DNA of 63,188 nucleotides. Source: a virus. Where the stretch lies: IMG/VR virus record IMGVR_UViG_3300045988_166537, one strand, 5' to 3'. Shown here one piece after another: positions 1 to 63,188 of this stretch (position 1 is its first letter; every line of letters starts with the position of its first letter). Under the pieces are notes generated by a model, which saw only the letters and a program-made list of their open reading frames with translations, was not told the DNA's origin and did not search any database. The translations under genes were made by a program, and so were the position numbers.

Positions 1-55
1 AAGTTTTCATAAATTTATCCACTTGCCTTTTACCTTCGTTTGAATACTTTGCGTA
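1..55. repeat. 55-nt terminal overlap, identical to 63134..63188
   Basis: Exact match of 'aagttttcataaatttatccacttgccttttaccttcgtttgaatactttgcgta' at both window ends. Confidence 0.95.
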
Positions 56-1966: not shown

Positions 1967-4900
1967 TTACTTCACTCCTTTCAAATACTTTGAAACTGTT
2001 GATGTTGAAACGCCAAGTTTGTTTGCAATTTCCTGCAATGTATAGTTAGACGCTGCGAGTGCTTTGATTCTGCTAACTTTCGCTGTACTTAGTTCAGAAG
2101 TCTGTTTTGGCATTGCTCTTTCTCTAAGCTTATCAGCATTTGCATTATTGAGAATACGAACAAGCATGTTATTAGTTATGGCACCAGCCTGAATAGCTTC
2201 CCATTCTTTGTCTGTGATGTTAATTTCTCTGTCTCTTCTTGAAGATGCACCAACATCTATACGACTGGCAACTATAGCCTGCTGAGATGCCTTCTTTATA
2301 TCGCTAACCTTGAGATCCTTATTGTTTGCTTTCTTTTCGCCAACAATAACACTGGCCTTTCTCTGTGCTGCACGCTCCCTCGGTGCATTGAGTTCGGCAG
2401 TATTAAGTTTCTCTTCCAGACTCTTTACCTCTGATGCATACTTCTTCTTAGCCTCTTTTGACATAGCTATATTTTCTATATTTGCATAGTCCAGTCGAGC
2501 TCGGTTGGCCATAGCCTTCATGCTATTAGCATAATCTGCATACAGTAGTTCCATAGGGTGTCTAGCCTTGGATACTAATGTATTAGCATCGTCTGTCTCA
2601 GCCATCTTAGTACTCTGCTGTTTTTTATAGTCCCTTGCATACTCTATGGTACCCGTCTTATCAGTATAGGTTACTTCCTTGGTCACGGGGTCTATATGCT
2701 TAACAGGGGTATACTTCTCTGCTGCTACTGGGTCGTCCTTCTTATACTTGATGGTCTCACCGGATGCGGTCTTGATACTAACCACTCCTGACTTACTCGT
2801 GGGTCGCTTAGGATAGTACAGGTCTTCAGTGGTCTTGTATATAAGTGCACCTTCAGGCTTGCTTGGGTCATACCAATCTTTGCCTTTTTGATTGATCTTT
2901 GGTGTACCTTGTCGCTTTGGTACTGACGTTTCACCCTTGCTTCTCGAAAGAATTGTAGCAGCGCCACCAGCTCTTACAAGATTCCCGTTCTCATCGTATT
3001 TAGGCTGATACTCTTTTCTAAGAGCTGAAATGTTATTGTCATGCTCGCTCTGTTTATAGTCTAGCTTATGTTTCTCAGCATCAATAACTACCATTGAATG
3101 TCTAACTGCTGCTGCAAGCTGATCTTCTCCAGCTCCCGCAAGTGTCATATCTGTAATCAGATTTGAAATTTTCCCCATCTCAGTCTGAGTGTTCTTCATG
3201 ATCCTGTACTCATGGCCATTACGATAGTAGTGCTTCTCTCCATTACTATCTACTTTGCACTCACCGCCATAAGCAACCTTAGGATCAAATCCCTCAAGCC
3301 CCTTCAAAGGCTTTGTAGATGTGATCTTAACTTTTCCACCGGCATCATGCGTTGGAATACACATAGCAGTATCACCATCAAAGTCTGCTCCAGACAATCT
3401 TTCTGCTACTTTGCTGTTAATACCTATGGCATCCTGAACATCACCGCCAAGAAGTTTCTTTGCCTCTTTATAATTGTTGTTTACAGTAAGTATAGGTATC
3501 TCAAATGTTCCACCATGCGGAAATCTGATGAGTGCTAGCTTGGTTCCTGTTTCATAGTTGGGGGCATACACTTCTGTGTCCTTCATTGTTGGAAATGGGA
3601 TAATAACATGATATCTCTGTCCCGGAAGTGCTGCCGCCTGAAGATTAACTGCTGCTGAATCACAGCCCTCCGCAAACTTCTGAAGATAGTGTTTTTTTAT
3701 GACAGGATTCGTAAGGGACATAATCTCGTCATATTCTGCTGCTTTGTCTGCCTTGGCGAGATCTAGCTGCTTTTTTGCCATCGTTACAGACTGCTTACCA
3801 AGAAACTGCGATGGTAGTGCATTTTTCCATTCAGTCCAGTCACCCTGATCAGCTCTTTTATTTATAAGCCCCAGTTTTTCTTCTCCGGTCTTAGCATCTT
3901 TGTACCAATACTGTCCACCCTGGTCAACATCTTTTATAAGAGATCCAAAAGGATTGTCTGGGTCACTCTTTATATCTTTAAGGACTTCCATCTTTGGCAC
4001 GTCTTTTGTTTTATTTGTATTAAATATAACGTCAATGCCATCTGGCATATCGTCAGAATATACTGCCATACCTTTGAGATACTTCTTACCGTCTACCATG
4101 ATACGAACCTGTGCATATTTGGAATCACCAAGGCTAAGGTCTTGGCATCCCCTACGAAGTTCTATTGTTCCGTCCTTTTCTATTCCACCATCTTCGCTAT
4201 AACGAATCATAAGCCGCTTGGAATCAAGACTTTCTGGATATGTAAATTTACGATGGAATGTTTCACCGCCATCTGTTGAAAAATAGTCGGTCAAAGGTTT
4301 GACTTTATCCAGATCATATATTTCTGAATGTGGTATATCTGGTTTAGTAAGAACTTTCTGAGTAGTCATCTGGTTTGAATTAGTCGCCTGTGGAAATCTA
4401 CCATTATATACATGGTATCCTTCTCTTTCCAGAATGGTTAATGCCTGATTCATCTTCTCCTCAGAAATATGAAGCTCACGCTCAACCCCCTTACCGACAT
4501 CAACCATACCCTTCTTATCAACCTGCTCTCTCATGAAATCAGCAGCATTCCTAGCCTGTTTCATTCGACTCTCAGAATCTGCATTGAGTAGTGATCTGAC
4601 TGTGGATTCAGATATGCCCATCTGTCTTCCAATCTCTGTAGCGCCAAGGCCATCTTCTTTGAGTGACTTGGCTCTTGATACATCGAGCATTCTTCTCTCA
4701 TCCTTACAAAGAGACTTCTCAGTTCTATACTGTGTTGTTGTCATACCAAAGGTATTTCTTATATTATCCGGAGTTTCTTCCCAGCCGTCTTTCTTGAGCG
4801 ATTCAACTCTACTCAAAAAATCATCGCCATGCTGATATGGGTTTTCTCCAGACCCCCAAGGATATCTGCCAGAACGCCTTGGCATTCCGTAATGCTCAAG

Positions 4901-4972: not shown

Positions 4973-5539
4973 TTAAGCAGCCTCCTTTTCTAACTTTTCA
5001 AGAAGTTTGTCGAGGTGAATTATCTTGTCCATGATCGGAGCAATCTCCTCTGCTGTTGGATTATGAACCAGCACTTCATCCTGCTTGTATAGCCGGAGTT
5101 CCATCTCAATGTCGCCAGGAGCAACATGATATTCAAGACAAAATAAAGCAGCATAAACCTCCAGCTGCTCGATATGGTCTTCGATCTTTCCAGACTTACC
5201 AGTTTTTAAATCATGAATTCGTAATACATTATTCTTGAAAGATATGGCATCCGCTGTGCCAAAAAATCTCTCAGAATAAAATAAAACAACCTCTGTACTC
5301 ATCTTGAATCCGATTGCATCATTTACATATGCATTCAGAGTCTTCTTTGTACGAGGTTGTTTAATCCCAAGGTCTATTGTTTCTTTAGCCCATGCATGGA
5401 GCCTTGTTCCAATCTGTGCCATTTTCAGGTTTCGATACACCTCAATTGCTTTGGTATCATCATACCTGAGCCACGAGCTTTTACTCGCCGAGAAAGGCGC
5501 GTGAAGGCCTTCCAGTTTCAAATGCTGATTGAAGTTCAT
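4973..5539 (-). CDS. PD-(D/E)XK (RecB/Cas4-like) nuclease (188 aa)
   Basis: 'GTADAISF...IHDLKTGKS...QLEVYAALF' fits the D / (D/E)xK / QxxxY pattern. Confidence 0.6.
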   Translation of the reverse strand: MNFNQHLKLEGLHAPFSASKSSWLRYDDTKAIEVYRNLKMAQIGTRLHAWAKETIDLGIKQPRTKKTLNAYVNDAIGFKMSTEVVLFYSERFFGTADAISFKNNVLRIHDLKTGKSGKIEDHIEQLEVYAALFCLEYHVAPGDIEMELRLYKQDEVLVHNPTAEEIAPIMDKIIHLDKLLEKLEKEAA

Positions 5540-17235: not shown

Positions 17236-17913
17236 CTACAACTTTCTACTCTTCCGTTCATCATATTCTTCTTTAGATATCTCAATCCACTTTCCCTCTT
17301 CATCGCCTTCTGGTTCTCTGAAGAATCTATCGATTTCAATTTTTTCCTGCTGACCATTCTCAGTTTTAATTGCATAAAATACTCCAACAGTATCAGAATC
17401 ACCATTCTTTTTGTCTGTTAGGAAATCCTCGCAATAAACCTTAATCGGCTTACTCGGCATATATGGCATCGTTATAGGAAACATTGCGTCAACGACACAA
17501 CTACCCAGACCCGAAGTGTATATGATACGCGGGTCATTAATGTCGACACAATACGATCTGTCATTGTCTCTGTATTTGATTGCTCCATCAGGATATACCT
17601 TCTTAAATAACGAAGGCATTCGTTTACACTGATACCATTTGAAACCGTCACTGTCATGCCATGTGCACGTATCCCAAATATCATCAGTATCCTCTATAGG
17701 TGTCAATGGCTTACCGTCTATGAGTCTGTTGAGGATACTCTGCGTCATTTTTATACTGAATCCTGAATGCCCATCTCCACATAAACTTTCAAATGCCTTT
17801 AGTGCACTCCCATAACAAGCACACCCATAATCAAACTCCCCCCTCTTTTTATCAGGGTTCTCTTTTCTACATGCAATCTCAACTTCTTTTCTTGCCCAAT
17901 CTAACATATTCAT
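17236..17913 (-). CDS. Hypothetical protein (225 aa)
   Basis: Track ORF with an AAGGAGGAG SD. Confidence 0.75.
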   Translation of the reverse strand: MNMLDWARKEVEIACRKENPDKKRGEFDYGCACYGSALKAFESLCGDGHSGFSIKMTQSILNRLIDGKPLTPIEDTDDIWDTCTWHDSDGFKWYQCKRMPSLFKKVYPDGAIKYRDNDRSYCVDINDPRIIYTSGLGSCVVDAMFPITMPYMPSKPIKVYCEDFLTDKKNGDSDTVGVFYAIKTENGQQEKIEIDRFFREPEGDEEGKWIEISKEEYDERKSRKL

Positions 17914-22051: not shown

Positions 22052-22555
22052 TTACTTGAATGGCAATTCATCCTCATCGTCAGGTGCCTCTTCCTCTGCA
22101 AAACGCTGAGCAAATCTATCGATGTCCTGCTCCACATACAACCTATCAAGATATGCAGTACGACCAGTCTTGCCATTTACTGTCCAATCGTAAGGGCGAA
22201 TGTCCATATCTACCCTCTTTATTGTCATACGATCAAGAGAATATGCTTCATCCTCTGAAAGGTTTCTCCTATTTTTACCGCTTACCAGATATATGTCCGG
22301 ACCATACTCATTGAATTTAACTTTGACACGTAATGACATACGCGGATCATCGTCTGGATCAACTCCAGGTTTTATCTTTACATTCCATCCATTACTTACA
22401 AGTACATCTGCCATTTCTTTATCTGGTATAATTAACTGGAAGTTTCGGTCGCCTTCTCTATTGTAATCACCCCCCCTTCCTTCAAAATTCCTAAATATAA
22501 TTCTTGCATCGTCGATTATTAATCTCCCAGTTTTCTTTTCAATCTTTAATTCCAT
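22052..22555 (-). CDS. Single-stranded DNA-binding protein (T7 gp2.5-like / DUF2815-like), 167 aa
   Basis: It has the acidic C-terminal tail 'EEEAPDDEDELPFK', typical of SSB tails ending in an aromatic residue. It sits in the replication module. Confidence 0.55.
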   Translation of the reverse strand: MELKIEKKTGRLIIDDARIIFRNFEGRGGDYNREGDRNFQLIIPDKEMADVLVSNGWNVKIKPGVDPDDDPRMSLRVKVKFNEYGPDIYLVSGKNRRNLSEDEAYSLDRMTIKRVDMDIRPYDWTVNGKTGRTAYLDRLYVEQDIDRFAQRFAEEEAPDDEDELPFK

Positions 22556-22619: not shown

Positions 22620-22832
22620 TTATTTCATGCCTTTTTTGACACCACGAATAAACGATGATATCCCTACGATAAGAAAATATGGCCACAGTATAACCGCCAA
22701 TATAGTCTCAACCATTCCAAACTTACCTTCATCAAAATCCGTTTGTGTTGATGCTATTATCATGACTATGATCAATATTCCTGCTACCACACATCCAATC
22801 AGTAAATACCACTGTATTAAATGTAATATCAT
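22620..22832 (-). CDS. Small membrane protein (70 aa, 2 TM)
   Basis: Track ORF with a GAGGAGGTG SD. Confidence 0.75.
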   Translation of the reverse strand: MILHLIQWYLLIGCVVAGILIIVMIIASTQTDFDEGKFGMVETILAVILWPYFLIVGISSFIRGVKKGMK

Positions 22833-22846
22833 AAAATCACCTCCTC

Positions 22847-22872
22847 ATTATAGAGGCTGTAATCTACGCGAT
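22847..22872 (-). promoter_or_regulatory. Conserved promoter-like element, copy 7
   Basis: Minus strand reads ATCGCG TAGATTACAGCCTC TATAAT. It overlaps the last codons and stop of the polymerase gene, and the hexamer abuts the SD. Confidence 0.65.
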
Positions 22873-25800
22873 ACTCTGTTTGAACGGTATATCACCAGTT
22901 ACTCCAGGTGGAATATACATAAAATCCATAGGCGGGTCAGTACATACATATGGATCATCCGAAGCAAACTGCTCAAAATCACCATACTTAGATATTTCTG
23001 CTATTGCTGCATCTACCTGTTTTCTGTAGAACGACTTGTCTATAGCGTTCTCTTTTCCGATCTGTCTCACCATCTCAGATTCAAGCCATCTATATCCAGT
23101 TGATCCCGATGCCGCATAGTTCTTGCCATTATCCACACGATATAGCACACCGCCATTCTCGCCAGTCAATATCGGTGTAAACTGACCAACCCTTCCTACA
23201 AACTGTAGGTTGTGACCCGGTTCAATATCCTCAGCAAGTTTCTTAGCCTCAGGCTCAAACATTATATCTGATATCTTACCTTTCTTATAGTCACTCTCGA
23301 GTTTATCAAGCTGCTTCTCAAGCTCACTCACGTCCGGAAGTTTTTCATTGATGTCCAAATATAAAGCTCCCTTGGATACTGAAAATGTCTCACACATGTC
23401 ATCAAATACTATTGGTTCATGGCTGAACAGAGTCTTGAATACATATGGGACTGCAAACTGCTTACCTGTAGCTGTCCATTCTCCACCATGCTCAGTATTA
23501 TCACCTGGCACATAACCATACATCCTCTGACAATCTTCTGGCGACTTGTATTTTGCAATATATACCGCATCGTTTACAAGGCACATCTTTTCATATGTAG
23601 CCTCATGCTCAAATGTGTATCCGTACCTCTTACCAAAGTCCATAACGAACTTGATAATCTCTGGTGTTGCATCTGGTATCTTGATTGAGTCTGTCTTGAT
23701 ATGAGCAACCTTGAATCCACGCTCCATAACTGCATGCTTGAGATCTATCATGAACAGTGCTCCACGCTTTGCCACTATATTATCGACATTTCTATTATCT
23801 CTGAACGGATTGTCAAAACCTGCGGCTGTCAAACCATAAACTGAATTAATAGCTGTCTTGAGTGCATTTGCCAAGTCCTTATGACTCAATTCACCGTTCT
23901 TAACTTTCTCAATATACGGTCTGAGCTTACCATCCATCATTTGGTCAACTTCATCCCATGCTTTATGTTTAATACTTACACGTCCCTCTACAATATCACG
24001 GAATGCTCTAGTGTATCTGACACCAAATAAACATTCTGCTATTATTGTATGCGGATGCATTGAAGCAATATCAAGCAATGCTACGTTGCCATACATGCCA
24101 GGAAAACCCTGAGCAAAGCCACCCTCTTTTGGGTCTTCTCCTCTGTACATTGACTTGCCAAATTCATGCGTATAGCCTGGGAAATATGGAAGTAAGCTGT
24201 CCTCTTTGAACGGTACTTCTGCATGTGGCGGATTATGTGGCGCTGCCATCATCTCCGGACATGTATCTTTTAGAAATAACAGCACATCAGGCGGAAGCTC
24301 TTTCACTGGCTGCGACAAATCCCTATACATGAATTCGCTCTGAGGTTTTCTATTCTTGCCAAATATAATTCTTGTAGTCAGAGTATTTGTTGTATCGTTA
24401 GCGGTCATCTCAGCCAAATCTGCCAGAATCTGCCTTGCTGTCCAGTCTGCCTTTAAATAATAAAATGCTGCCTCTGTGGATATAACATCGTTATCACAAT
24501 ATTCAGCAACTTTCACCCATAGTTCCTTTGGTACAGGCTTATCCCATTCTAATCCAAGCTCCTGGTGTTTGATCCTCAGTAATAACTTTCTGAGTTCATC
24601 ACTTATCTTAGATTTTGGGTCGTGAGCAACCTTTGACATCTCTATCTCGAGCTTCTTCAAACTCTTTTTATTGGTAGACGATGCAAAATCATAAATATCA
24701 GTGTACGATATGTTATACGCCTCGCCAAAGAATGCGTTATTATCATGATTTATTATCCTCTGTGATAATCTGTAGAGCTGCTCGTTGTCATATCCCATCA
24801 TAATTGCAAACAGAATATGATTATCGTATCGCCTACAGTTAAATCCGATCAGCCTATACCCAGTTATCAACTTCTCAATATCTATAGGCTTTGGATTGAT
24901 CATACGAACCATCGAATTTCCTTCACCAGCAATCTCCCAGTTCACCAAGCATAAGTTCGGAAATATCTCTATATCATAAAATGCTATAGGTTTCTCCGTG
25001 TCCTCAGTATTTTCAGAAGGTTCATCCGACTTGAACTTCATTTCTTTTACCTGCTTAATACAAAAGTCTGCATTATTTGTACTTGACATGGCAAACGCCA
25101 GCACAGCGTCGAACATATCACTTACGTCATAATGCAGACCTTGATTATAAGCATCGTCTAATATTTGTCGTATAAAACAAATACTGGGCTTAGTAGCTGG
25201 GTGTATCTCTTTATTGAGATTCCTTTTTATCAGCTGTCTAAGCCCTCGCTCGCTCTTTATTTTATCTTTTCCTACCGTGTTTTTCTCCTCCTTCAAAGGT
25301 AATCCAGAGTTAATAGTCGCTATAGGAATATCGTTACACTTGGTAAGCATACGTCTTAATGAACTATTACCCGTAAATACCTTTATTTCAATATCCTCAT
25401 CATAAATACGACTAAGCATTGAAACGTCCCCATCATAAATATAATGAAGATGTATGCCAGCTCCACTCTTACTGAGTTCTGCATATGTAGCAGGCCACTT
25501 ACTTGCCGCTTCAAGATTTCTCTCGAAGGATTTTTTACCATCATCTCCTTTTTTATCGAAGTCTATACCTATCAGATTAGTTTTGACATCTTGGACTTTC
25601 ACGTAATGCAGTTTATGAGTATCGAGCTCTTTCAGTTTAGTTTTACACTTATCCCATGATATCGTCGGAGTTTCGTTACTTGACGCATATTGCGCTGGAC
25701 AATCCGCGAGTTCATCGTCAAGTAAACTATGTTGTTCTTTAAACCTCAACCATGCAGGAATACTCGTTTCAGCAACTTCTGTCTTCTCTGTAGGTTCCTC

Positions 25801-27102
25801 ACGCTCAAAAATATCAGTTCTAAATCCAGTATAGTAACTTCTTACCCTCGCGCCGTCATCAAGTGCTATACGATCAGAATACTCTCTGAAATAGTTCTTG
25901 AGTTCTTCTTTGAAACTTCTCTGAGAATATGGATAAGGCACCTTTGCATCATCACAATACAACTTGTACATTTCCCACGCCTCTTTGAGTGTTGTACTGT
26001 CATGCTTCTTAAATACATGGTATGCACTCAATATAAAGTTGTAGAAATCATTTGACGCTCCCAGCATCGCAACTGGCACATAGTCGTCATATCTTCCTGG
26101 ATTTTCCAAATATACTTCCTTGCAATGCCAGGCAATAGCCCCAAGCTCAAACTTAACTTTTGCCATCGCCTCTTTGTATTCTTTTTGGCTGAGCTTATCC
26201 CCTGATGGAGATACATCTATCAGACGTCTTAACAAACCCGATTTACCATCGGTGATCCTTACTGGTTTGTTTGTACCCATGATAAGAAAACACTTAAAAC
26301 TGTTTGTATATGTACTTTTGAACTTCTCGTTTACCGTCATCTGCTCATGTGACACCAAACTGTTTATCTTCGTGTTATCCTCAATCCTGGATAGATCGCC
26401 GTCATGCTCTATTGCTACAAGCGGATTCGATCTGAATGCCTCCAGAGCAAATACATTCGTAGCAGAACCCAATGCCTTTGAATCAAATACCGAATAATAC
26501 CCATCAAATAACATCTGAATAATATTCAAAACTGTTGATTTACCTGTTCCGGCAGCACCATACAACACTACAAACTTCTGAATAGTCTTGCTATCGCCAG
26601 TTATGATCGAACCGATAGCCCATTCAATCTTGCGACGCTCCTCCTCAGAATATAAAGTAGATAATAGCTTATCCCATGATGAATAGTCGCCCGCCTCAAG
26701 AGGATACGGCAGTCGTTTACTTGCATAATCCTCTTTTCTGGCGGCATCATTTGAAAATATAAGTTTTTCATCCAACATATGGAACGAATCTCTGGACTGT
26801 TTCTGACAATATTTATGAAACTTATCAATCATCCCAGTATCGGCATCCCACATATACATAGGTTTTGCTAAATCTGTAAATCTGTCTCTATTCTCCTCAT
26901 AATATGTTTTTATTTCCTGATCTATGAGACGGACAACATCTTCTTCATCAGTCGACCAAAGTTTATGTTCTTCGTCCCATATAGCGTAGAAATCCTGACC
27001 GCGAATCATGAGATCCTTACTCTTCTTGATGATGAATTTAGGATATATCTCAACCTCGCCACGTTTGGGCGATCTGGTTGCGATAGTCATAAAATCTAAC
27101 AT
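22864..27102 (-). CDS. SF3 helicase - AEP primase - family B DNA polymerase fusion (1412 aa)
   Basis: The helicase part has Walker A 'GAAGTGKST', Walker B 'VAIEHDGD' and 'LIMGTN...SGLLRR'. The AEP part has 'GIDFD' and 'SKSGAGIHLHY'. The PolB part has ExoI 'FYDIEIF', ExoII 'FNCRRYDNHIL', ExoIII 'YCDNDV', motif A 'DIASMHPH', motif B 'KTAINSVYG' and motif C 'IKTDSI'. Confidence 0.8.
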   Translation of the reverse strand: MLDFMTIATRSPKRGEVEIYPKFIIKKSKDLMIRGQDFYAIWDEEHKLWSTDEEDVVRLIDQEIKTYYEENRDRFTDLAKPMYMWDADTGMIDKFHKYCQKQSRDSFHMLDEKLIFSNDAARKEDYASKRLPYPLEAGDYSSWDKLLSTLYSEEERRKIEWAIGSIITGDSKTIQKFVVLYGAAGTGKSTVLNIIQMLFDGYYSVFDSKALGSATNVFALEAFRSNPLVAIEHDGDLSRIEDNTKINSLVSHEQMTVNEKFKSTYTNSFKCFLIMGTNKPVRITDGKSGLLRRLIDVSPSGDKLSQKEYKEAMAKVKFELGAIAWHCKEVYLENPGRYDDYVPVAMLGASNDFYNFILSAYHVFKKHDSTTLKEAWEMYKLYCDDAKVPYPYSQRSFKEELKNYFREYSDRIALDDGARVRSYYTGFRTDIFEREEPTEKTEVAETSIPAWLRFKEQHSLLDDELADCPAQYASSNETPTISWDKCKTKLKELDTHKLHYVKVQDVKTNLIGIDFDKKGDDGKKSFERNLEAASKWPATYAELSKSGAGIHLHYIYDGDVSMLSRIYDEDIEIKVFTGNSSLRRMLTKCNDIPIATINSGLPLKEEKNTVGKDKIKSERGLRQLIKRNLNKEIHPATKPSICFIRQILDDAYNQGLHYDVSDMFDAVLAFAMSSTNNADFCIKQVKEMKFKSDEPSENTEDTEKPIAFYDIEIFPNLCLVNWEIAGEGNSMVRMINPKPIDIEKLITGYRLIGFNCRRYDNHILFAIMMGYDNEQLYRLSQRIINHDNNAFFGEAYNISYTDIYDFASSTNKKSLKKLEIEMSKVAHDPKSKISDELRKLLLRIKHQELGLEWDKPVPKELWVKVAEYCDNDVISTEAAFYYLKADWTARQILADLAEMTANDTTNTLTTRIIFGKNRKPQSEFMYRDLSQPVKELPPDVLLFLKDTCPEMMAAPHNPPHAEVPFKEDSLLPYFPGYTHEFGKSMYRGEDPKEGGFAQGFPGMYGNVALLDIASMHPHTIIAECLFGVRYTRAFRDIVEGRVSIKHKAWDEVDQMMDGKLRPYIEKVKNGELSHKDLANALKTAINSVYGLTAAGFDNPFRDNRNVDNIVAKRGALFMIDLKHAVMERGFKVAHIKTDSIKIPDATPEIIKFVMDFGKRYGYTFEHEATYEKMCLVNDAVYIAKYKSPEDCQRMYGYVPGDNTEHGGEWTATGKQFAVPYVFKTLFSHEPIVFDDMCETFSVSKGALYLDINEKLPDVSELEKQLDKLESDYKKGKISDIMFEPEAKKLAEDIEPGHNLQFVGRVGQFTPILTGENGGVLYRVDNGKNYAASGSTGYRWLESEMVRQIGKENAIDKSFYRKQVDAAIAEISKYGDFEQFASDDPYVCTDPPMDFMYIPPGVTGDIPFKQSIA

Positions 27103-27132
27103 ACTCACCACCCTCTCTTTTCATTATTTGAT

Positions 27133-28287: not shown

Positions 28288-29226
28288 TCATGCACATACA
28301 TAATCGGTAATTGGCCCGTCTACATTGAAATCCAACAATACCGCCTTCTCATATCCATTAACGAATCTACGTTTAGCAGCATTGTTGACATCAAATATGC
28401 CGAAATCCACAAAATTGTCACCGATTGGATTCTTCTCATCATAAATCCAGCCAACCTCATGGCCGATCTTAGTTCCCTGGAAACCAAGCATACTGAATAC
28501 ATCATTCAGATATAAATATCCCTGTGCTTTGAGCTTTTCGTTCGCCCAGTTCTGCTGCTGTCTGAGGAACCATAACGTCTGCTCTGGGTCATCATTCCAG
28601 CCAGTATTGCCACAGTCAAATATTCTTGTATATGCCGATAGTGTATTTGGATCTACAACATCATATTCCTCGGTAACAACTGTCTGAGTACCATCTTCAT
28701 TCTGCACCACAGTCTCCATGGTATTGTGCTGGATATTGTATCTGAGTTCCTGATCCACTTCTTTTCCGAACTTCTCAACAACTCTGTTTCTATACTCCTT
28801 GAATGACTTATTTACAGTCATATAAGCAGTAGCAAGAGCTGCATTTCTCTGTCTGAGAATCCTGTTAGATGTAACTATGCTACCTATTGATAATGCGCCA
28901 AGCAATATGGATGGCCCATAGAGCTTCGTAAGCTCCCAACCAGTCTGCATATAGATAGTTGTAAGGCCCTTCTTACAGTCCTTCATCGTGTACTCTGTCT
29001 CTTCGCCGTCTTCGATAGCCTTGATATCTTCATGAACAGAATCTAGCTTATTATGAGATTCCTCCATAACATCGTCAAGTTTTCTTGTAGCCACGCATGC
29101 CCATATTGCGCTGCCTACCGTACCTACTACTCCAACGATCATGCATATCTCCGGGCTATGCTGCCTGGTCTTAAATATAGCTTTATTGGCTGCTACTGCC
29201 ATCTTTGAGAAAAATTTACTCTTCAT
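28288..29226 (-). CDS. Membrane protein, paralogue A of a three-member family (DUF6353-like), 312 aa
   Basis: It shares a two-TM hairpin, 'NRILRQRNAALATAY...EYRNRVVEKFG' and 'GHEVGW' blocks with 31457..32266 and 32432..33253. Confidence 0.7.
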   Translation of the reverse strand: MKSKFFSKMAVAANKAIFKTRQHSPEICMIVGVVGTVGSAIWACVATRKLDDVMEESHNKLDSVHEDIKAIEDGEETEYTMKDCKKGLTTIYMQTGWELTKLYGPSILLGALSIGSIVTSNRILRQRNAALATAYMTVNKSFKEYRNRVVEKFGKEVDQELRYNIQHNTMETVVQNEDGTQTVVTEEYDVVDPNTLSAYTRIFDCGNTGWNDDPEQTLWFLRQQQNWANEKLKAQGYLYLNDVFSMLGFQGTKIGHEVGWIYDEKNPIGDNFVDFGIFDVNNAAKRRFVNGYEKAVLLDFNVDGPITDYVCA

Positions 29227-31456: not shown

Positions 31457-32266
31457 TCAGTGATACATGGAATATTCGTACCTCGGAGCTACACGATAGC
31501 CTATTCCAAGACACGGACGACCATCCTTTGCAATATCACCAGTGATATCTAGCTGAATGAGTCCATCTCTACTTACATTCCAGCCAATCTCATCACCGAT
31601 TGATGTCCTTTCCAACCCAATCTTATCGTAGAAGTCGTTCAAAGATACATAGTCACAACTATTCAGTATCTCATTCAGGTCATTTACTGCTGCGCGAAGT
31701 GTTTCTCTGTCGGATTTAAAATATCTTTGAGATATATAATCCAGACAAAGCTGCTCTCCGTCCCCCGCTACGATAACCTGTGTATTTGGCGCTGGTGCTT
31801 TCTCGATTTTATCTTTAACAACTGCCTTTGCTATCTCTTTCTCTTTTTCCTCACCAATAGTCTCGATAACCTTGTTCTTATACTCATGCAATGCTGCTTC
31901 AGACATAGAGTATGCTGTAGCTATAGCTGCATTCCGCTTAGCATTCACATTGTTGGCACATATAATACATACCACTGATGTGGTGAACGATATAGCTGTT
32001 GGAATGTAGCACTTCCACGTTGCCTGTATGATTTCTTTCTTTGTGAGCTCCACTTCTACAGGGATATCTTCGACCTCTTCCTCCATGAGCTCGTTTATCT
32101 TGGCCTCTTTTACCTCTTCGACTTTCTTATTTGCAGCTATTGTGCCTTTGATAGCAAATATAACTGCACCTGCTGCTGATGTAATCCCCAAGCCTATCAG
32201 TATTGCAGGGCTATTTTTTCCAGCTTTGTTAGCCATTTTATTTATGGCTTTCGTGAATTTATTCAT
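31457..32266 (-). CDS. Membrane protein, paralogue B (DUF6353-like), 269 aa
   Basis: Trimmed to the ATG at 32266 after GAAGGAGAA. 'NVNAKRNAAIATAY...EYKNKVIETIG' and 'GDEIGW' are present. Confidence 0.7.
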   Translation of the reverse strand: MNKFTKAINKMANKAGKNSPAILIGLGITSAAGAVIFAIKGTIAANKKVEEVKEAKINELMEEEVEDIPVEVELTKKEIIQATWKCYIPTAISFTTSVVCIICANNVNAKRNAAIATAYSMSEAALHEYKNKVIETIGEEKEKEIAKAVVKDKIEKAPAPNTQVIVAGDGEQLCLDYISQRYFKSDRETLRAAVNDLNEILNSCDYVSLNDFYDKIGLERTSIGDEIGWNVSRDGLIQLDITGDIAKDGRPCLGIGYRVAPRYEYSMYH

Positions 32267-32426
32267 CGCAATTCTCCTTCTCAATTCTATTCATGGCTTC
32301 GTTTACCTTAGCTTCAACCATCTCTTCAGTCTGCTTCTCCTGCACATGATCTGATAACATAGATATACCAAAACTTAACACTGGTACGACCATTCCTAAT
32401 ATTTTTAACCACTTATTATTCTTCAT
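32259..32426 (-). CDS. Small membrane protein (55 aa)
   Basis: Trimmed to the ATG at 32426 after CAAGGAGGT. It has one TM segment. Confidence 0.6.
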   Translation of the reverse strand: MKNNKWLKILGMVVPVLSFGISMLSDHVQEKQTEEMVEAKVNEAMNRIEKENCDE

Positions 32427-32431
32427 TCCGT

Positions 32432-33253
32432 TTACCTCCTTGCGTCTCTCGAAAAAGATTCTATTGTGTAATCGCCTGATACCGAAACATATGACGCGTC
32501 TCGCCATTCGTCCAGGGCATCTTCATCTGGCCCATACATATAATCCACCTCATATATTGGTTCGCCATTCATTATCTCCTTTGTTTTTCTATGATGAATG
32601 TCGATCCAATACATACCACTATCAATACTCCAACCAATGTCATCACCATTTGAAATTGGTGAAAGGCCTACAAACTCTAACCATTCATTAAAAGTTACGT
32701 ATCCACGCATTACATAATTACGATTGATGTGGTACTCAGCATCCATGAGTTCCCGCTCGTACATATCAAAATGCTGATTGGAAATAGGTTCATAGAAATG
32801 GAATATCTTATCTGGAGTCGTAGCGCCTATCTGATGATAATTGCAATATTCCCTGATGACGTCGCCCATTATCTCCTTATCAACATCTTCACCATATCTC
32901 TTTACAACTTCTCCGCGATACTGAGCTAAGGTTTCCCTTACCATTGTGTATGCTGCCATAAGCTGTGCCTGTCTCTGATGGTTAATGACATTTGAACCAA
33001 TGATACAAGCAATAGTTGACACTGCGATAACACCTGTTGGAACATAAACTGGTGTTGCAATAACTATTTTTTCCTTAGTTGTGAGTGGCTCGCCTTTCCG
33101 AAGTTCTTCTTTCTTCAGTTTCCTCATTGCTTTGGGTGTTTCTTTCGCTGCAAATATACCCGTAGCAATAACACCCACTGTGCCTAATACTGTAAGTATC
33201 GTGGGCGAATGTTTTCGTACAAATATCTTTGCACATGGTACTAATCCTTTCAT
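32432..33253 (-). CDS. Membrane protein, paralogue C (DUF6353-like), 273 aa
   Basis: Trimmed to the ATG at 33253 after AAAGGAGGA. 'NVINHQRQAQLMAAY...QYRGEVVKRYG' and 'GDDIGW' are present. Confidence 0.7.
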   Translation of the reverse strand: MKGLVPCAKIFVRKHSPTILTVLGTVGVIATGIFAAKETPKAMRKLKKEELRKGEPLTTKEKIVIATPVYVPTGVIAVSTIACIIGSNVINHQRQAQLMAAYTMVRETLAQYRGEVVKRYGEDVDKEIMGDVIREYCNYHQIGATTPDKIFHFYEPISNQHFDMYERELMDAEYHINRNYVMRGYVTFNEWLEFVGLSPISNGDDIGWSIDSGMYWIDIHHRKTKEIMNGEPIYEVDYMYGPDEDALDEWRDASYVSVSGDYTIESFSRDARR

Positions 33254-33280
33254 ATAAATTCCTCCTTTAAAGATGTATTT

Positions 33281-33318
33281 ATAAAAATAAAAGACCCAAT
33301 GCATTAAGCACCGAGTCC
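33281..33318 (-). terminator. Intrinsic terminator after 33326..33493
   Basis: Minus RNA reads GGACUCGGUGC-UUAAU-GCAUUGGGUCUU followed by UUAUUUUUAU. Confidence 0.6.
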
Positions 33319-37704: not shown

Positions 37705-38934
37705 ATGCTTATAAAGTGTCCTGAATGCGAACTACAAGTGAGTGATAAGGCAATGAATTGTCCACATTGCGGATATCCCATAACAAGCAGTACTCCTGTT
37801 AGGAAAACTTCAAAAAAGAAACACCCGAAACTGCCAAATGGTTTTGGACAGATCTCGGAATTGAGTGACTCAAGACTTAGAAATAAATATAGAGTAATGG
37901 TTACCGTAGGACGGGATACTGTAACTATGAGATATAAGACAAAAATACTAGGCTATTACCCAACATATAACAAAGCCTATGCTGCCTTGGTGGAATATAA
38001 TAAAAATCCGTATGATCTGGATAATGATATTACCGTTGCTGAATTATATGAAAAATGGTCCACTCAGTATTTTGAAGAATTAAAAAGCCCATCGAGTGAA
38101 CGTACAATAAAAGCCGCTTGGAATTATTGTTCATCTATCTATAATATGAAAGCTCGAAATGTACGTGCAAGACATATTAAGGGATGTATGACCGATGGTA
38201 TATACGAATATCGCGGTCAGATAAGGCATGCCTCCCCCGAAACCCAAAGTCGAATTAAATCCATGTTTAATCTGATGTTTGATTATGCATTGGAATACGA
38301 GATTGCAGATAGAAATTATGCCAGAACCTTCAACATTCCTGATGATGTACAAAAGGCAAAAACAAAACAAACCTCGGGGCATATACCATTTACCCAGGAA
38401 GAAATGGATAAACTCTGGGACAACTTGTATAAGGTGCCGTACATTGATATAGTCATAATTCAATGTTATTCAGGATGGCGTCCTCAAGAATTAGGGTTAA
38501 TTAAACTCGAAAATGTAGATCTTGAAAACGGATACATGATTGGTGGCATGAAAACTGAAGCTGGTGAAAATAGAACGGTTCCAATTCATTCAAAAATAAA
38601 AGAACTTGTCGTAGCAAGATATAACCAAGCTAAGGATATGGGGAGCGAATATTTGTTAAATTGTACAGACACCGTAACGCATAGGTATTCTTGGAAATTA
38701 ACATATGATAAATATAGGCATCGGTTTGACAAGATTCGTGATCAGTTAGAACTTAATCCAGATCACAGAGCGCATGACCCAAGAAAACATTTTGTAACTA
38801 TGGCTAAAAAAGCTGAAGTAGATCAATACGCGATCAAGTACATTGTAGGGCATAAGATAAATGACATAACAGAGCGTGTATATACACAAAGAGAACCTGA
38901 GTGGTTGAAAAATGAAATAGAAAAAATAAAATAG
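37705..38934 (+). CDS. int: Tyrosine integrase with an N-terminal zinc ribbon (409 aa)
   Basis: The N-terminus reads 'CPECE...CPHCGYP'. The C-terminal catalytic region reads 'RAHDPRKHFVT...GHKINDITERVYT' (R..HxxR..Y pattern). A GAGAGGAGAAA SD is present. Confidence 0.85.
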   Translation: MLIKCPECELQVSDKAMNCPHCGYPITSSTPVRKTSKKKHPKLPNGFGQISELSDSRLRNKYRVMVTVGRDTVTMRYKTKILGYYPTYNKAYAALVEYNKNPYDLDNDITVAELYEKWSTQYFEELKSPSSERTIKAAWNYCSSIYNMKARNVRARHIKGCMTDGIYEYRGQIRHASPETQSRIKSMFNLMFDYALEYEIADRNYARTFNIPDDVQKAKTKQTSGHIPFTQEEMDKLWDNLYKVPYIDIVIIQCYSGWRPQELGLIKLENVDLENGYMIGGMKTEAGENRTVPIHSKIKELVVARYNQAKDMGSEYLLNCTDTVTHRYSWKLTYDKYRHRFDKIRDQLELNPDHRAHDPRKHFVTMAKKAEVDQYAIKYIVGHKINDITERVYTQREPEWLKNEIEKIK

Positions 38935-42242: not shown

Positions 42243-43319
42243 TTACGCTTCAAGCTGACATGTGTAAGCCTGAGAGTTGTCCACAGCCCCAGCAGTAACC
42301 GTATACGTCTTTGATGTAGATACAAGTGTTGCCCCTTTATACCATTTTATTGTTCCAAGTCCAGATACAGTTCCATTATCAGCTATTGTCTGTTCGGTGC
42401 TTCCTTTAAATACATGTGCTGTAAGCACGGTAGAACCGGTATTATTTTTAAAGATAATGCCATTGCTTGATGTGATTGTTACAGTTATTGCGTCTGCTCC
42501 TGCATTACCTTGAGGTCCCCGTGGTCCTGTTGCTCCAGTATCCCCCTGTGGTCCTGTTGGACCTGTAGCTCCTTTATCGCCCTTAGCACCTGTTTCACCT
42601 TTAATTCTCGCCCATGTATATGAACTGACGGTTGCTGGGTCTGCCTGGTTATAATCAGTACATGTACCGATATACATTCCAACATCTTCACCTGAGTTTG
42701 ATGTGAATGTCTTGCCGCCATCATTTGAGTACTTTACATGGAAGTATGGGGTCTTGCCGTTTGCTCCCGCTGCACCAGGAGTACCATTTGTACCATCTTT
42801 TACTGTCTGGGTATGTGTGCCGTCTTTATCGGTGATGGTTATGGTTGTCACACCATTAGCTTTGGTAACTGATACAGTTGGGGATACCCCCTGAGGACCC
42901 TGTGGTCCGGTTGGGCCTGTAGCTCCTTTATCGCCCTTAGCACCTGTAGCTCCTGTCTTTGCTACTGCAAATGAGAACTTCTTGTTGATAGTTACACCGT
43001 CAACAACAACTGGGACAGTCGCTTCGCATGCGGTTGTCAGCTTTGCTGTCAGAGTAAACGTGATTGTAACTTTTGAAGTTCCACTGTTGCTTACCTCAGC
43101 CGTCACACCTGTTGGACATACGATTGCCTTAGCATCTACTGTAACAACGGAACACATGTTATTACCGCAATATGCTGCTGCATCTGTTGTGCATTTAGAA
43201 CCGGCCGCAGCTCCCTGCGTGTCCCCAAGAAATGTATACCCCTCGCTTGACAGCACAACGTTATATGCGTCTGACACATCAAGCACTGTAATCTGATCTG
43301 CTGCTTTTATTGTTGCCAT
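42243..43319 (-). CDS. Collagen-like tail fibre protein (358 aa)
   Basis: There are two G-X-Y tracts: 'GATGAKGDKGATGPTGPQGPQG' and 'GETGAKGDKGATGPTGPQGDTGATGPRGPQGNAG'. Confidence 0.7.
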   Translation of the reverse strand: MATIKAADQITVLDVSDAYNVVLSSEGYTFLGDTQGAAAGSKCTTDAAAYCGNNMCSVVTVDAKAIVCPTGVTAEVSNSGTSKVTITFTLTAKLTTACEATVPVVVDGVTINKKFSFAVAKTGATGAKGDKGATGPTGPQGPQGVSPTVSVTKANGVTTITITDKDGTHTQTVKDGTNGTPGAAGANGKTPYFHVKYSNDGGKTFTSNSGEDVGMYIGTCTDYNQADPATVSSYTWARIKGETGAKGDKGATGPTGPQGDTGATGPRGPQGNAGADAITVTITSSNGIIFKNNTGSTVLTAHVFKGSTEQTIADNGTVSGLGTIKWYKGATLVSTSKTYTVTAGAVDNSQAYTCQLEA

Positions 43320-63011: not shown

Positions 63012-63188
63012 TTATATAGTAGCGAACTTGACTTTTCCAGCTTTATCTATTATATGAGTAGTTAGCTTACCTATCTTGTCTGCATTCTGAGCAATGGTAA
63101 GGACTGCTCCTGTTACTGTTGTCGCTGTTGCTAAAGTTTTCATAAATTTATCCACTTGCCTTTTACCTTCGTTTGAATACTTTGCGTA
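63012..63188 (-). CDS. 3' part of the junction-spanning 131-aa gene (see 1..274)
   Basis: TAA at 63012-63014. Positions 63134-63188 duplicate 1-55 and the frame is continuous. Confidence 0.7.
   Translation of the reverse strand, partial: YAKYSNEGKRQVDKFMKTLATATTVTGAVLTIAQNADKIGKLTTHIIDKAGKVKFATI
63134..63188. repeat. 55-nt terminal overlap, identical to 1..55
   Basis: Exact match with the window start. Confidence 0.95.

Follow-up and report, generated by a model that had tools for sequence, protein, structure and literature searches.

A predicted single-chain helicase–primase–family-B DNA polymerase of the GP55 family in a temperate gut-type siphophage genome

The IMG/VR virus record IMGVR_UViG_3300045988_166537, analysed here at its full length of 63 188 nucleotides and called the window throughout, encodes on its minus strand a 1412-residue protein in which a superfamily 3 (SF3) helicase, an archaeo-eukaryotic primase (AEP) domain, an α-helical domain (aHD) and a complete family-B DNA polymerase (PolB) follow one another in a single chain. 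With a probability of roughly 0.93 this protein is orthologous to Lactococcus phage 1706 GP55, belongs to the HelPrimPolB or four-in-one family and is the replicative enzyme of a complete temperate siphophage. It was placed in the family because all of the features that define HelPrimPolB at the sequence and fold levels were found in it, and by analogy with purified GP55 we infer that it would have helicase, RNA-primase, polymerase and 3′–5′ exonuclease activities. An earlier note, made from the sequence alone, had read the order helicase, primase and proofreading PolB and had seen in it a near-complete replisome in one protein; both points were borne out by domain and fold tests and by GP55 biochemistry. 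Its three modules stood, but the fourth functional module, aHD, which is essential for priming by GP55, had been overlooked. The note was wrong in taking the arrangement to be undescribed, since its prediction dates from 2016, its name from 2020 and its biochemical characterization from 2025. The protein is therefore of little value as a discovery; what it adds is a complete and clearly bounded representative from a gut phage, in which the limits of the domains and the catalytic residues have been placed against a characterized enzyme. Primer-free isothermal DNA amplification is a practical application for which this class of enzyme is of interest.

Relationship to GP55 of Lactococcus phage 1706

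Kazlauskas et al. (2016; PMC4889955) described gp55 of Lactococcus phage 1706 as an SF3 helicase, an AEP primase and a PolB in one polypeptide and presented the fusion as an 'ultimate testament' to how these functions are coupled. The group was subsequently named HelPrimPolB and assigned to an EpsilonN-like PolB clade with divergent MotifC and KxY motifs (Kazlauskas et al., 2020; PMC7544198). Zhang et al. (Nucleic Acids Research, 2025; PMC12205980) purified GP55 as a 'four-in-one replicase'. DNA polymerase activity was lost in the D949A variant, 3′–5′ exonuclease activity in D712A/E714A, UTP/dTTP-dependent helicase and strand-displacement activity in K189A and RNA-primase activity, for which GTP initiation at 5′-CCAAC-3′ was preferred, in D509A; aHD was a new domain that was essential for priming (Y655 and F667). 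GP55 was dimeric in solution, its primase and polymerase cooperated in trans and the enzyme alone fully copied ssM13 DNA within 0.2 min in vitro; more than 1000 homologues were reported, mostly in human-associated phages (PMC12205980).

BLASTP of the window protein against GP55 (YP_001828703.1, locus L001), the type member of HelPrimPolB, aligned 1393 positions (E = 0), of which 37% are identical and 53% positive, with residues 19–1375 collinear with GP55 residues 22–1298. Every GP55 residue mutated by Zhang et al. is kept in the window protein (Table 1) and is invariant or nearly so in ten phyla-spanning homologues; Asp514 is likewise conserved alongside Asp516. The GP55 truncation boundaries 439/440 and 688/689 fall at 438/440 and 691/692 in the window protein, and the module order (SF3 helicase, PriS-like AEP, aHD, PolB with exonuclease) is the same. 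The two proteins differ in that the window protein is 95 residues longer, with insertions at residues 822–843, 933–973, 1186–1200 and 1256–1293, and in their source, a virulent dairy phage for GP55 and a gut-type temperate phage for the window protein. PDB searches retrieved no experimentally determined structure from the family.

Gene and reading frame

The open reading frame (ORF) list and its translation gave a single uninterrupted ORF of 1415 residues with a GTG start (minus strand, 22864–27111). Judged from the sequence, the ATG at 27102 is the real start, giving 1412 residues, because homologues begin with M-[LIV]-D-F and a purine-rich GAGAGGGTGG stands 5 nt upstream; the GTG at 27111 was rejected as a start as it falls within GAGAGGGTGG. 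The coordinates 22864–27102 and the single 1412-residue polypeptide of the earlier note agree with the intact ORF and with the starts of homologues, and each of the motifs that it quoted is present exactly once and in the order given there (Table 1). An alignment was made of ten homologues from gut, lactococcal and actinobacterial phages, in which the catalytic residues of these motifs do not vary. The protein is matched over its full length by phrog_4210 (E = 0).

Domain architecture

The SF3 helicase, AEP primase and complete proofreading PolB assigned in the earlier note were each supported by the searches: the first by DUF5906, SaPI5 and D5/E5 matches, the second by recurrent Prim-Pol and AEP-TOTE matches and a motif alignment with SaPI5, and the third by the presence of ExoI–III and motifs A–C and by matches to Pol II, archaeal PolBs and Pol α.

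The helicase module consists of an N-terminal β/α domain (residues 1–135), the SF3 P-loop core and a helical, winged-helix-like C-terminal part. DUF5906, a D5/SF3-type P-loop family, scored above its own cutoff in a Pfam scan of the window sequence alone, and primase–helicase PHROGs align to residues 21–447. A profile built from the ten-sequence alignment matched the SaPI5 primase–helicase (PDB entry 7ola) at 1.6e-8, as well as the helicase region of NrS-1; a single-sequence PDB search matched only the SaPI5 helicase. The AlphaFold2 (AF2) model of residues 1–700 had a predicted local distance difference test score (pLDDT) of 73.7 and a predicted template-modelling score (pTM) of 0.41 and retrieved poxvirus D5/E5, African swine fever virus (ASFV) PrimPol and NrS-1 CTR with Foldseek, all at a probability of 1.00. 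The invariant columns comprise Walker A Gly182–Thr190 (with Lys188), Walker B Asp234/Asp236, sensor-1 Asn278 and the arginine finger Arg292/Arg293.

In the PolB module the invariant exonuclease residues are Asp710/Glu712 of ExoI, Asn755 and Tyr759-Asp760 of ExoII and Tyr868 and Asp872 of ExoIII, and the invariant polymerase residues are Asp1011 and Ser1014 of motif A, Lys1082, Asn1086 and Tyr1089-Gly1090 of motif B and Lys1136-Thr-Asp1138-Ser of motif C; the last diverges from the canonical D-T-D-S in reading K-T-D-S. The family profile matched Escherichia coli Pol II (5.9e-7) and archaeal PolBs. The AF2 model of residues 690–1412 (pLDDT 83.3, pTM 0.72) matched Pol α, 9N/KOD, Pol II and ASFV polymerase with Foldseek at a probability of 1.00; Pol α, archaeal PolB and Pol II held the top ranks, which order structural similarity and not phylogeny. 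A protein-primed or primer-independent PolB (phi29-like or piPolB) was considered and rejected, there being no inverted repeats in the genome; TPR1/TPR2 insertions were not looked at explicitly. Protein-primed replication was rejected because there are no inverted terminal repeats and the ends of the window share nothing but a 55-nt direct overlap from assembly. The closest structural matches in Foldseek are RNA/DNA-primed PolBs, and in GP55 de novo synthesis requires the AEP domain (PMC12205980).

The AEP motifs are read as motif I Asp514-x-Asp516, motif II Ser544, Gly547-x-Gly549-x-His551 and a third strand with Glu572, and all seven residues are invariant among the ten phyla-spanning homologues. 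Because the single-sequence Pfam scan gave only DUF5906 (the window sequence matched AEP-TOTE at E = 0.013 and Prim-Pol at E = 0.098, both below threshold), profiles, folds and a Pfam scan of 34 diverse AEP segments from the family, mutually less than 62% identical, were used. Prim-Pol was matched below threshold by 26 of the 34 (best 2e-5) and AEP-TOTE by 17, and no other Pfam family was matched by more than two. A profile of the AEP alone gave a marginal SaPI5 match (E = 0.034) in which DxD and SxSGxGxH were aligned with residues 95–157 of 7ola, its AEP domain; the full ten-sequence profile against the PDB added PolBs and no AEP, and AEP PHROGs matched the primase region weakly. In the AF2 model this region (pLDDT 83–92) has a β-rich core with DxD at the end of a strand. 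It is followed by aHD, modelled as four helices (618–629, 637–653, 661–672 and 678–687) with a pLDDT of ∼82–91.

Several observations weigh against assignment of the protein to the four-in-one family. Its identity to characterized GP55 is only 37%, it has clade-specific PolB insertions (residues 822–843, 933–973 and 1256–1293) and a different C-terminus, and the single-sequence Pfam scan gave neither an AEP nor a PolB match above threshold. The model of the N-terminal half is only moderate, with parts of the ATPase core at a pLDDT below 50, and its Foldseek matches are dominated by the helicase, so that they bear on the helicase fold and not on that of the AEP. The dimeric state of GP55 is also unusual for an SF3 helicase. 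The AEP is the least secure of the domain assignments, depending as it does on recurrent sub-threshold matches, motif conservation and published analysis.

The AEP-like segment might accordingly be read as a degenerate, noncatalytic spacer, with primers supplied by host primase, by transcripts of a phage RNA polymerase or by a primer-independent or protein-primed PolB. Such a spacer would suit the sub-threshold Pfam result, the lack of a canonical PriL, HBD or PriCT accessory domain and the presence in this phage of a YonO-like RNA polymerase gene; it would leave unexplained why the AEP catalytic residues are invariant in phyla-spanning homologues and why Prim-Pol and AEP-TOTE recur among the 34 segments when other families are matched by two at most. 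The GP55 variant D509A, which corresponds to D516A here, abolishes both RNA-primer synthesis and de novo DNA synthesis, and the essential aHD residues Tyr655 and Phe667 of GP55 are present as Tyr658 and Phe670. A noncatalytic spacer is thus very unlikely, and a functional primase within a GP55 orthologue is preferred.

Integrity of the fusion and its distribution

Of 50 697 phage records searched with tblastn, 341 gave a match, and in 252 of these at least 80% of the protein was covered by one contiguous match. These 252 are mostly cultured-phage genomes from at least five host genera (Arthrobacter, Gordonia, Streptomyces, Curtobacterium, Rhodococcus, Lactococcus and Faecalibacterium), in which the homologue is annotated as 'DNA primase/polymerase', 'DNA polymerase' or 'helicase/polymerase'. 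Each of the 8000 candidates scored from a collection of metagenome proteins reached E ≤ 1e-5; the best 120 relatives are full-length and 66–71% identical, and one 99%-identical cluster has 540 member sequences. The AEP and aHD segment (residues 440–700) was searched alone against 1.84 billion 50%-identity representatives and matched 426 clusters, 223 of them at E ≤ 1e-30; among the best 150 of the 426, 108 representatives have at least 1200 residues, with the segment at residues ∼440–700. The ten-sequence alignment is unbroken over both domain junctions.

Because the collinear fusion recurs in the 252 records and among the cluster representatives and the alignment is continuous, an assembly or frameshift artefact joining separate helicase–primase and polymerase genes, a possibility raised in the earlier note, is on these comparisons effectively refuted and may be regarded as excluded for practical purposes. 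The assembly behind the window is indeed metagenome-style, its ends overlapping by 55 nt, and about ten of the 150 family representatives stop at window residues ∼915–937, so that split versions may exist in some lineages; this recurrent truncation point nevertheless lies inside PolB and not at a domain junction, and recombinant full-length GP55 is active (PMC12205980).

Within the family no recurrent break was found at the domain junctions. The approximately ten truncated representatives of 50% clusters (including P0138, P0152, P0156, P0201, P0205, P0208, P0239 and P0261) start at residues 1–15 and all end at window residues 915–937, between the exonuclease and polymerase halves, several of them with similar ends (…VGR or …PGR). 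The truncation point coincides with the 41-residue insertion of the window protein's clade (residues 933–973; window 24184–24306) and may mark a position within PolB at which the gene is repeatedly split or mobile elements insert.

Streptomyces phage Bing (locus L007), in which BLAST gave two pieces, was rejected as a split gene: it has a full-length gene, gp64, and a small extra gene upstream. The latter (gp60, 'AAA-ATPase', 283–738, 151 residues) matches part of the N-terminal region of the replicase and may be a partial duplication of it. Megablast of the 10 kb neighbourhood against phages gave one 143-nt match only, so that there is no close cultured relative at the DNA level.

Proposed role in replication

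By homology, the SF3 module (residues 1–438) would unwind DNA with NTP hydrolysis and so enable strand displacement, the AEP (∼455–605) and aHD (∼615–691) would make short RNA primers on a single-stranded template, and PolB (∼692–1412) would extend these with dNTPs and proofread by its 3′–5′ exonuclease. The primase and polymerase active sites are separate, and primers may pass between subunits, in trans, as in GP55. Together with the phage single-stranded DNA-binding protein, the replicase should need little else in order to copy the genome.

An accessory role in repair, recombination or anti-defence, with the genome replicated by host Pol III, DnaB and DnaG, would be compatible with a temperate phage carrying an integrase gene and with the absence of a clamp or clamp loader among the genes scanned. 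Against this, the parts of the genome scanned showed no other DNA polymerase or primase, the gene is universally retained in this phage lineage and sits in a conserved module with a single-stranded DNA-binding protein and a helicase, and GP55 alone copies ssM13 DNA in vitro. It is highly improbable that the enzyme is accessory, and the replicative role is retained.

C-terminal tail and single-stranded DNA-binding partner

The replicase ends in …GVTGDIPFKQSIA (…GDIPFKQSIA; window 22867–22920), an acidic tail with a hydrophobic-Pro-Phe tip, and the PF24083 single-stranded DNA-binding protein (SSB) of the phage ends in …DDEDELPFK (window 22055–22080), which is also acidic with a hydrophobic-Pro-Phe tip. 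An acidic [ILVM]-P-F within the last nine residues was found in 95 of 120 close relatives. Its internal frequency predicts 0.28 occurrences among the 108 full-length representatives of 50% clusters, whereas 23 have the motif (∼80-fold), 13 of them with an exact xPF ending, and the ten residues preceding the motif have a net charge of ∼−3. The SSB of Faecalibacterium phage FP_oengus ends in …PEVPF.

The C-terminal tip of bacterial SSB is DDDIPF, which both tails resemble, and in phage T7 the acidic, Phe-terminated tails of gp4 and gp2.5 coordinate hand-off on gp5/thioredoxin. By analogy with T7, it is possible, as a tentative suggestion, that the replicase and SSB tails vie for a single docking site, whether on the replicase itself or on host proteins that interact with SSB, and so coordinate hand-off at the fork. 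GP55 of phage 1706 has no such acidic PF tail, nor is one mentioned by Zhang et al. (2025; PMC12205980). The tail and the PolB insertions provide leads on how a single-chain replisome may be coupled to single-stranded DNA-binding proteins.

The window has the gene order of phage 1706, FP_oengus and the related locus L009, the replicase gene being followed downstream by those for the SSB and the SF2 helicase.

Comparison with other systems

Other full-length homologues include the 'helicase/polymerase' of FP_oengus (AUV56521.1; 56–61% identity) and the 'DNA primase/polymerase' of actinophages (Arthrobacter, Gordonia, Streptomyces cluster BI and others; 42–53% identity). Both annotations leave out one or more modules. 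The FP_oengus protein lacks the insert at residues 822–843 and the PF tail; FP_oengus and the actinophages belong to the same phage supergroup as the window phage and have the YonO-like RNA polymerase in common with it.

Pas55 of Actinoplanes phage phiAsp2 has an SF3 helicase, a DnaG primase and a PolA in the same one-chain order (PMC4889955); by its published description, its DnaG/TOPRIM primase and family-A polymerase are not homologous to the modules of the window protein. D5/E5, ASFV C962R PrimPol, the NrS-1 PrimPol–helicase and SaPI5 Rep share an SF3 module that is homologous at the fold level and the AEP catalytic motifs. These canonical proteins have the reversed order, with the AEP N-terminal to the helicase, no fused replicative polymerase and, in place of aHD, accessory domains of the Zn, PriCT or HBD type, and are hexamers. 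Membership of the canonical AEP–D5N–SF3 class (D5/E5, P4-alpha-like) was rejected on the order found here, helicase (residues 1–438) and then AEP (455–605).

A search for homologues encoded by separate genes, which the earlier note had proposed, found unfused distant relatives in Efquatrovirus phages. Enterococcus phage phiSHEF2 has a stand-alone 763-residue PolB (∼23% identity to residues 681–1121) without a fused SF3 helicase, and a separate Prim-Pol gene ∼5.5 kb from it.

Table 1 Features of the replicase and of the window. Positions are nucleotides of the window unless marked aa (residues of the 1412-residue protein).
Feature	Position	Strand	Basis or remark
Complete four-in-one replicase coding sequence, 1412 aa	22864–27102	−	Stop TAG 22864–22866; translation
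Shine–Dalgarno-like GAGAGGGTGG	27108–27117	−	5 nt upstream of ATG 27102; sequence
Helicase module, aa 1–438 (GP55 1–439 equivalent)	25789–27102	−	Boundary mapped from GP55
SF3 ATPase core, aa 140–300	26203–26685	−	Pfam DUF5906 at 1e-12
Flexible helicase–primase linker, aa 434–449	25756–25803	−	pLDDT < 50; length and sequence vary in alignment
PriS-like AEP catalytic domain, aa ∼455–605	25288–25740	−	Motifs, recurrent Pfam matches, profile alignment
aHD, primase accessory module, aa ∼615–691	25030–25260	−	AF2 secondary structure
PolB N-terminal/3′–5′ exonuclease half, aa ∼700–900	24403–25005	−	Invariant columns; Foldseek PolB matches
PolB polymerase half, aa ∼901–1240	23383–24402	−	Profile and Foldseek matches
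PolB C-terminal extension, aa 1241–1412	22867–23382	−	Clade-specific charged helical insert aa 1256–1293; acidic tail …DDPYVCTDPPMDFMYIPPGVTGDIPFKQSIA
Helicase Walker A, GAAGTGKST	aa 182–190		
Helicase Walker B, LVAIEHDGD	aa 228–236		
Helicase motif FLIMGTN	aa 272–278		
Helicase motif SGLLRRL	aa 288–294		
Primase motif GIDFD	aa 512–516		
Primase motif SKSGAGIHLHY	aa 544–554		
ExoI, FYDIEIF	aa 708–714		
ExoII, GFNCRRYDNHIL	aa 753–764		
ExoIII, YCDNDVIS	aa 868–875		
PolB motif A, LDIASMHPH	aa 1010–1018		
PolB motif B, KTAINSVYG	aa 1082–1090		
PolB motif C, HIKTDSI	aa 1134–1140		
GP55 K189 equivalent	K188		Helicase
GP55 D509 equivalent	D516		Primase
GP55 Y655, F667 equivalents	Y658, F670		aHD priming
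GP55 D712/E714 equivalents	D710/E712		Exonuclease
GP55 D949 equivalent	D1011		Polymerase
70-aa ORF between replicase and PF24083 genes	22620–22832		
Single-stranded DNA-binding/annealing protein (PF24083; GP66 in phage 1706)	22052–22555	−	Pfam 1.2e-43, phrog_4787
SF2 (DEAD/Helicase_C-like) helicase (GP67 in phage 1706)	18823–20088	−	phrog_62 at 2.6e-59
Putative YonO-like RNA polymerase, 1000 aa	1967–4969	−	Full-length phrog_4291 ('RNA-dependent RNA polymerase') match
PD-(D/E)XK/DUF2800-like nuclease	4973–5539	−	Directly upstream of YonO-like RNA polymerase gene
225-aa protein with N-terminal Tad3 domain (type I Thoeris inhibitor)	17236–17913	−	PF25185, 1.2e-32
Three paralogous DUF6353/phrog_2152 proteins	28288–29226, 31457–32284, 32432–33304	−	Upstream of replicase
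Tyrosine integrase	37705–38934	+	phrog_1, 3.8e-39; one of very few plus-strand genes
Collagen-like Gly-X-Y repeats in tail-fibre ORF 42243–43319	42508–42963	−	9-nt periodic direct-repeat family

Genome context

An exact 55-nt direct repeat at window positions 1–55 and 63134–63188 indicates a circularly closed k-mer assembly; the phage genome is therefore complete, at ∼63 133 bp. The phage was classed as a temperate siphophage from a gut-type metagenome, the temperate lifestyle being implied by the integrase. Related copies on contigs of 145 kb (P0099) and 305 kb (P0081) are consistent with prophages. Other genes identified were those for a terminase, a portal, a head maturation protease-like head protein, tail fibres and an endolysin; an ORF of 2186 residues is probably the tape measure, judged by size and position only. 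Nearly all of the genes are on the minus strand, the GC skew is negative in all 2 kb bins (cumulative −6.0) and no tRNA genes were found in the window.

The genome belongs to the actinophage/Lactococcus 1706/Faecalibacterium FP_oengus supergroup described by Koert et al. (bioRxiv 842583), for which a putative YonO-like RNA polymerase has been reported previously (bioRxiv 10.1101/842583). The YonO-like protein of the window has the universal metal-binding motif of two-barrel RNA polymerases, ADFDGD, at 3371–3388 and sigma-region-4/helix–turn–helix matches at both ends (residues ∼106–128 and ∼959–998). Its gene and that of the replicase are found in nearly identical sets of phage records (251 versus 341), with Arthrobacter 95, Gordonia 55 and Streptomyces 54 in both. 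In related Streptomyces phages a 'Cas4 family exonuclease' gene adjoins the RNA polymerase gene. From its domain match, the Tad3 protein is a probable anti-defence gene product; the gene is also present in locus L009, which likewise has three copies of the DUF6353 paralogues.

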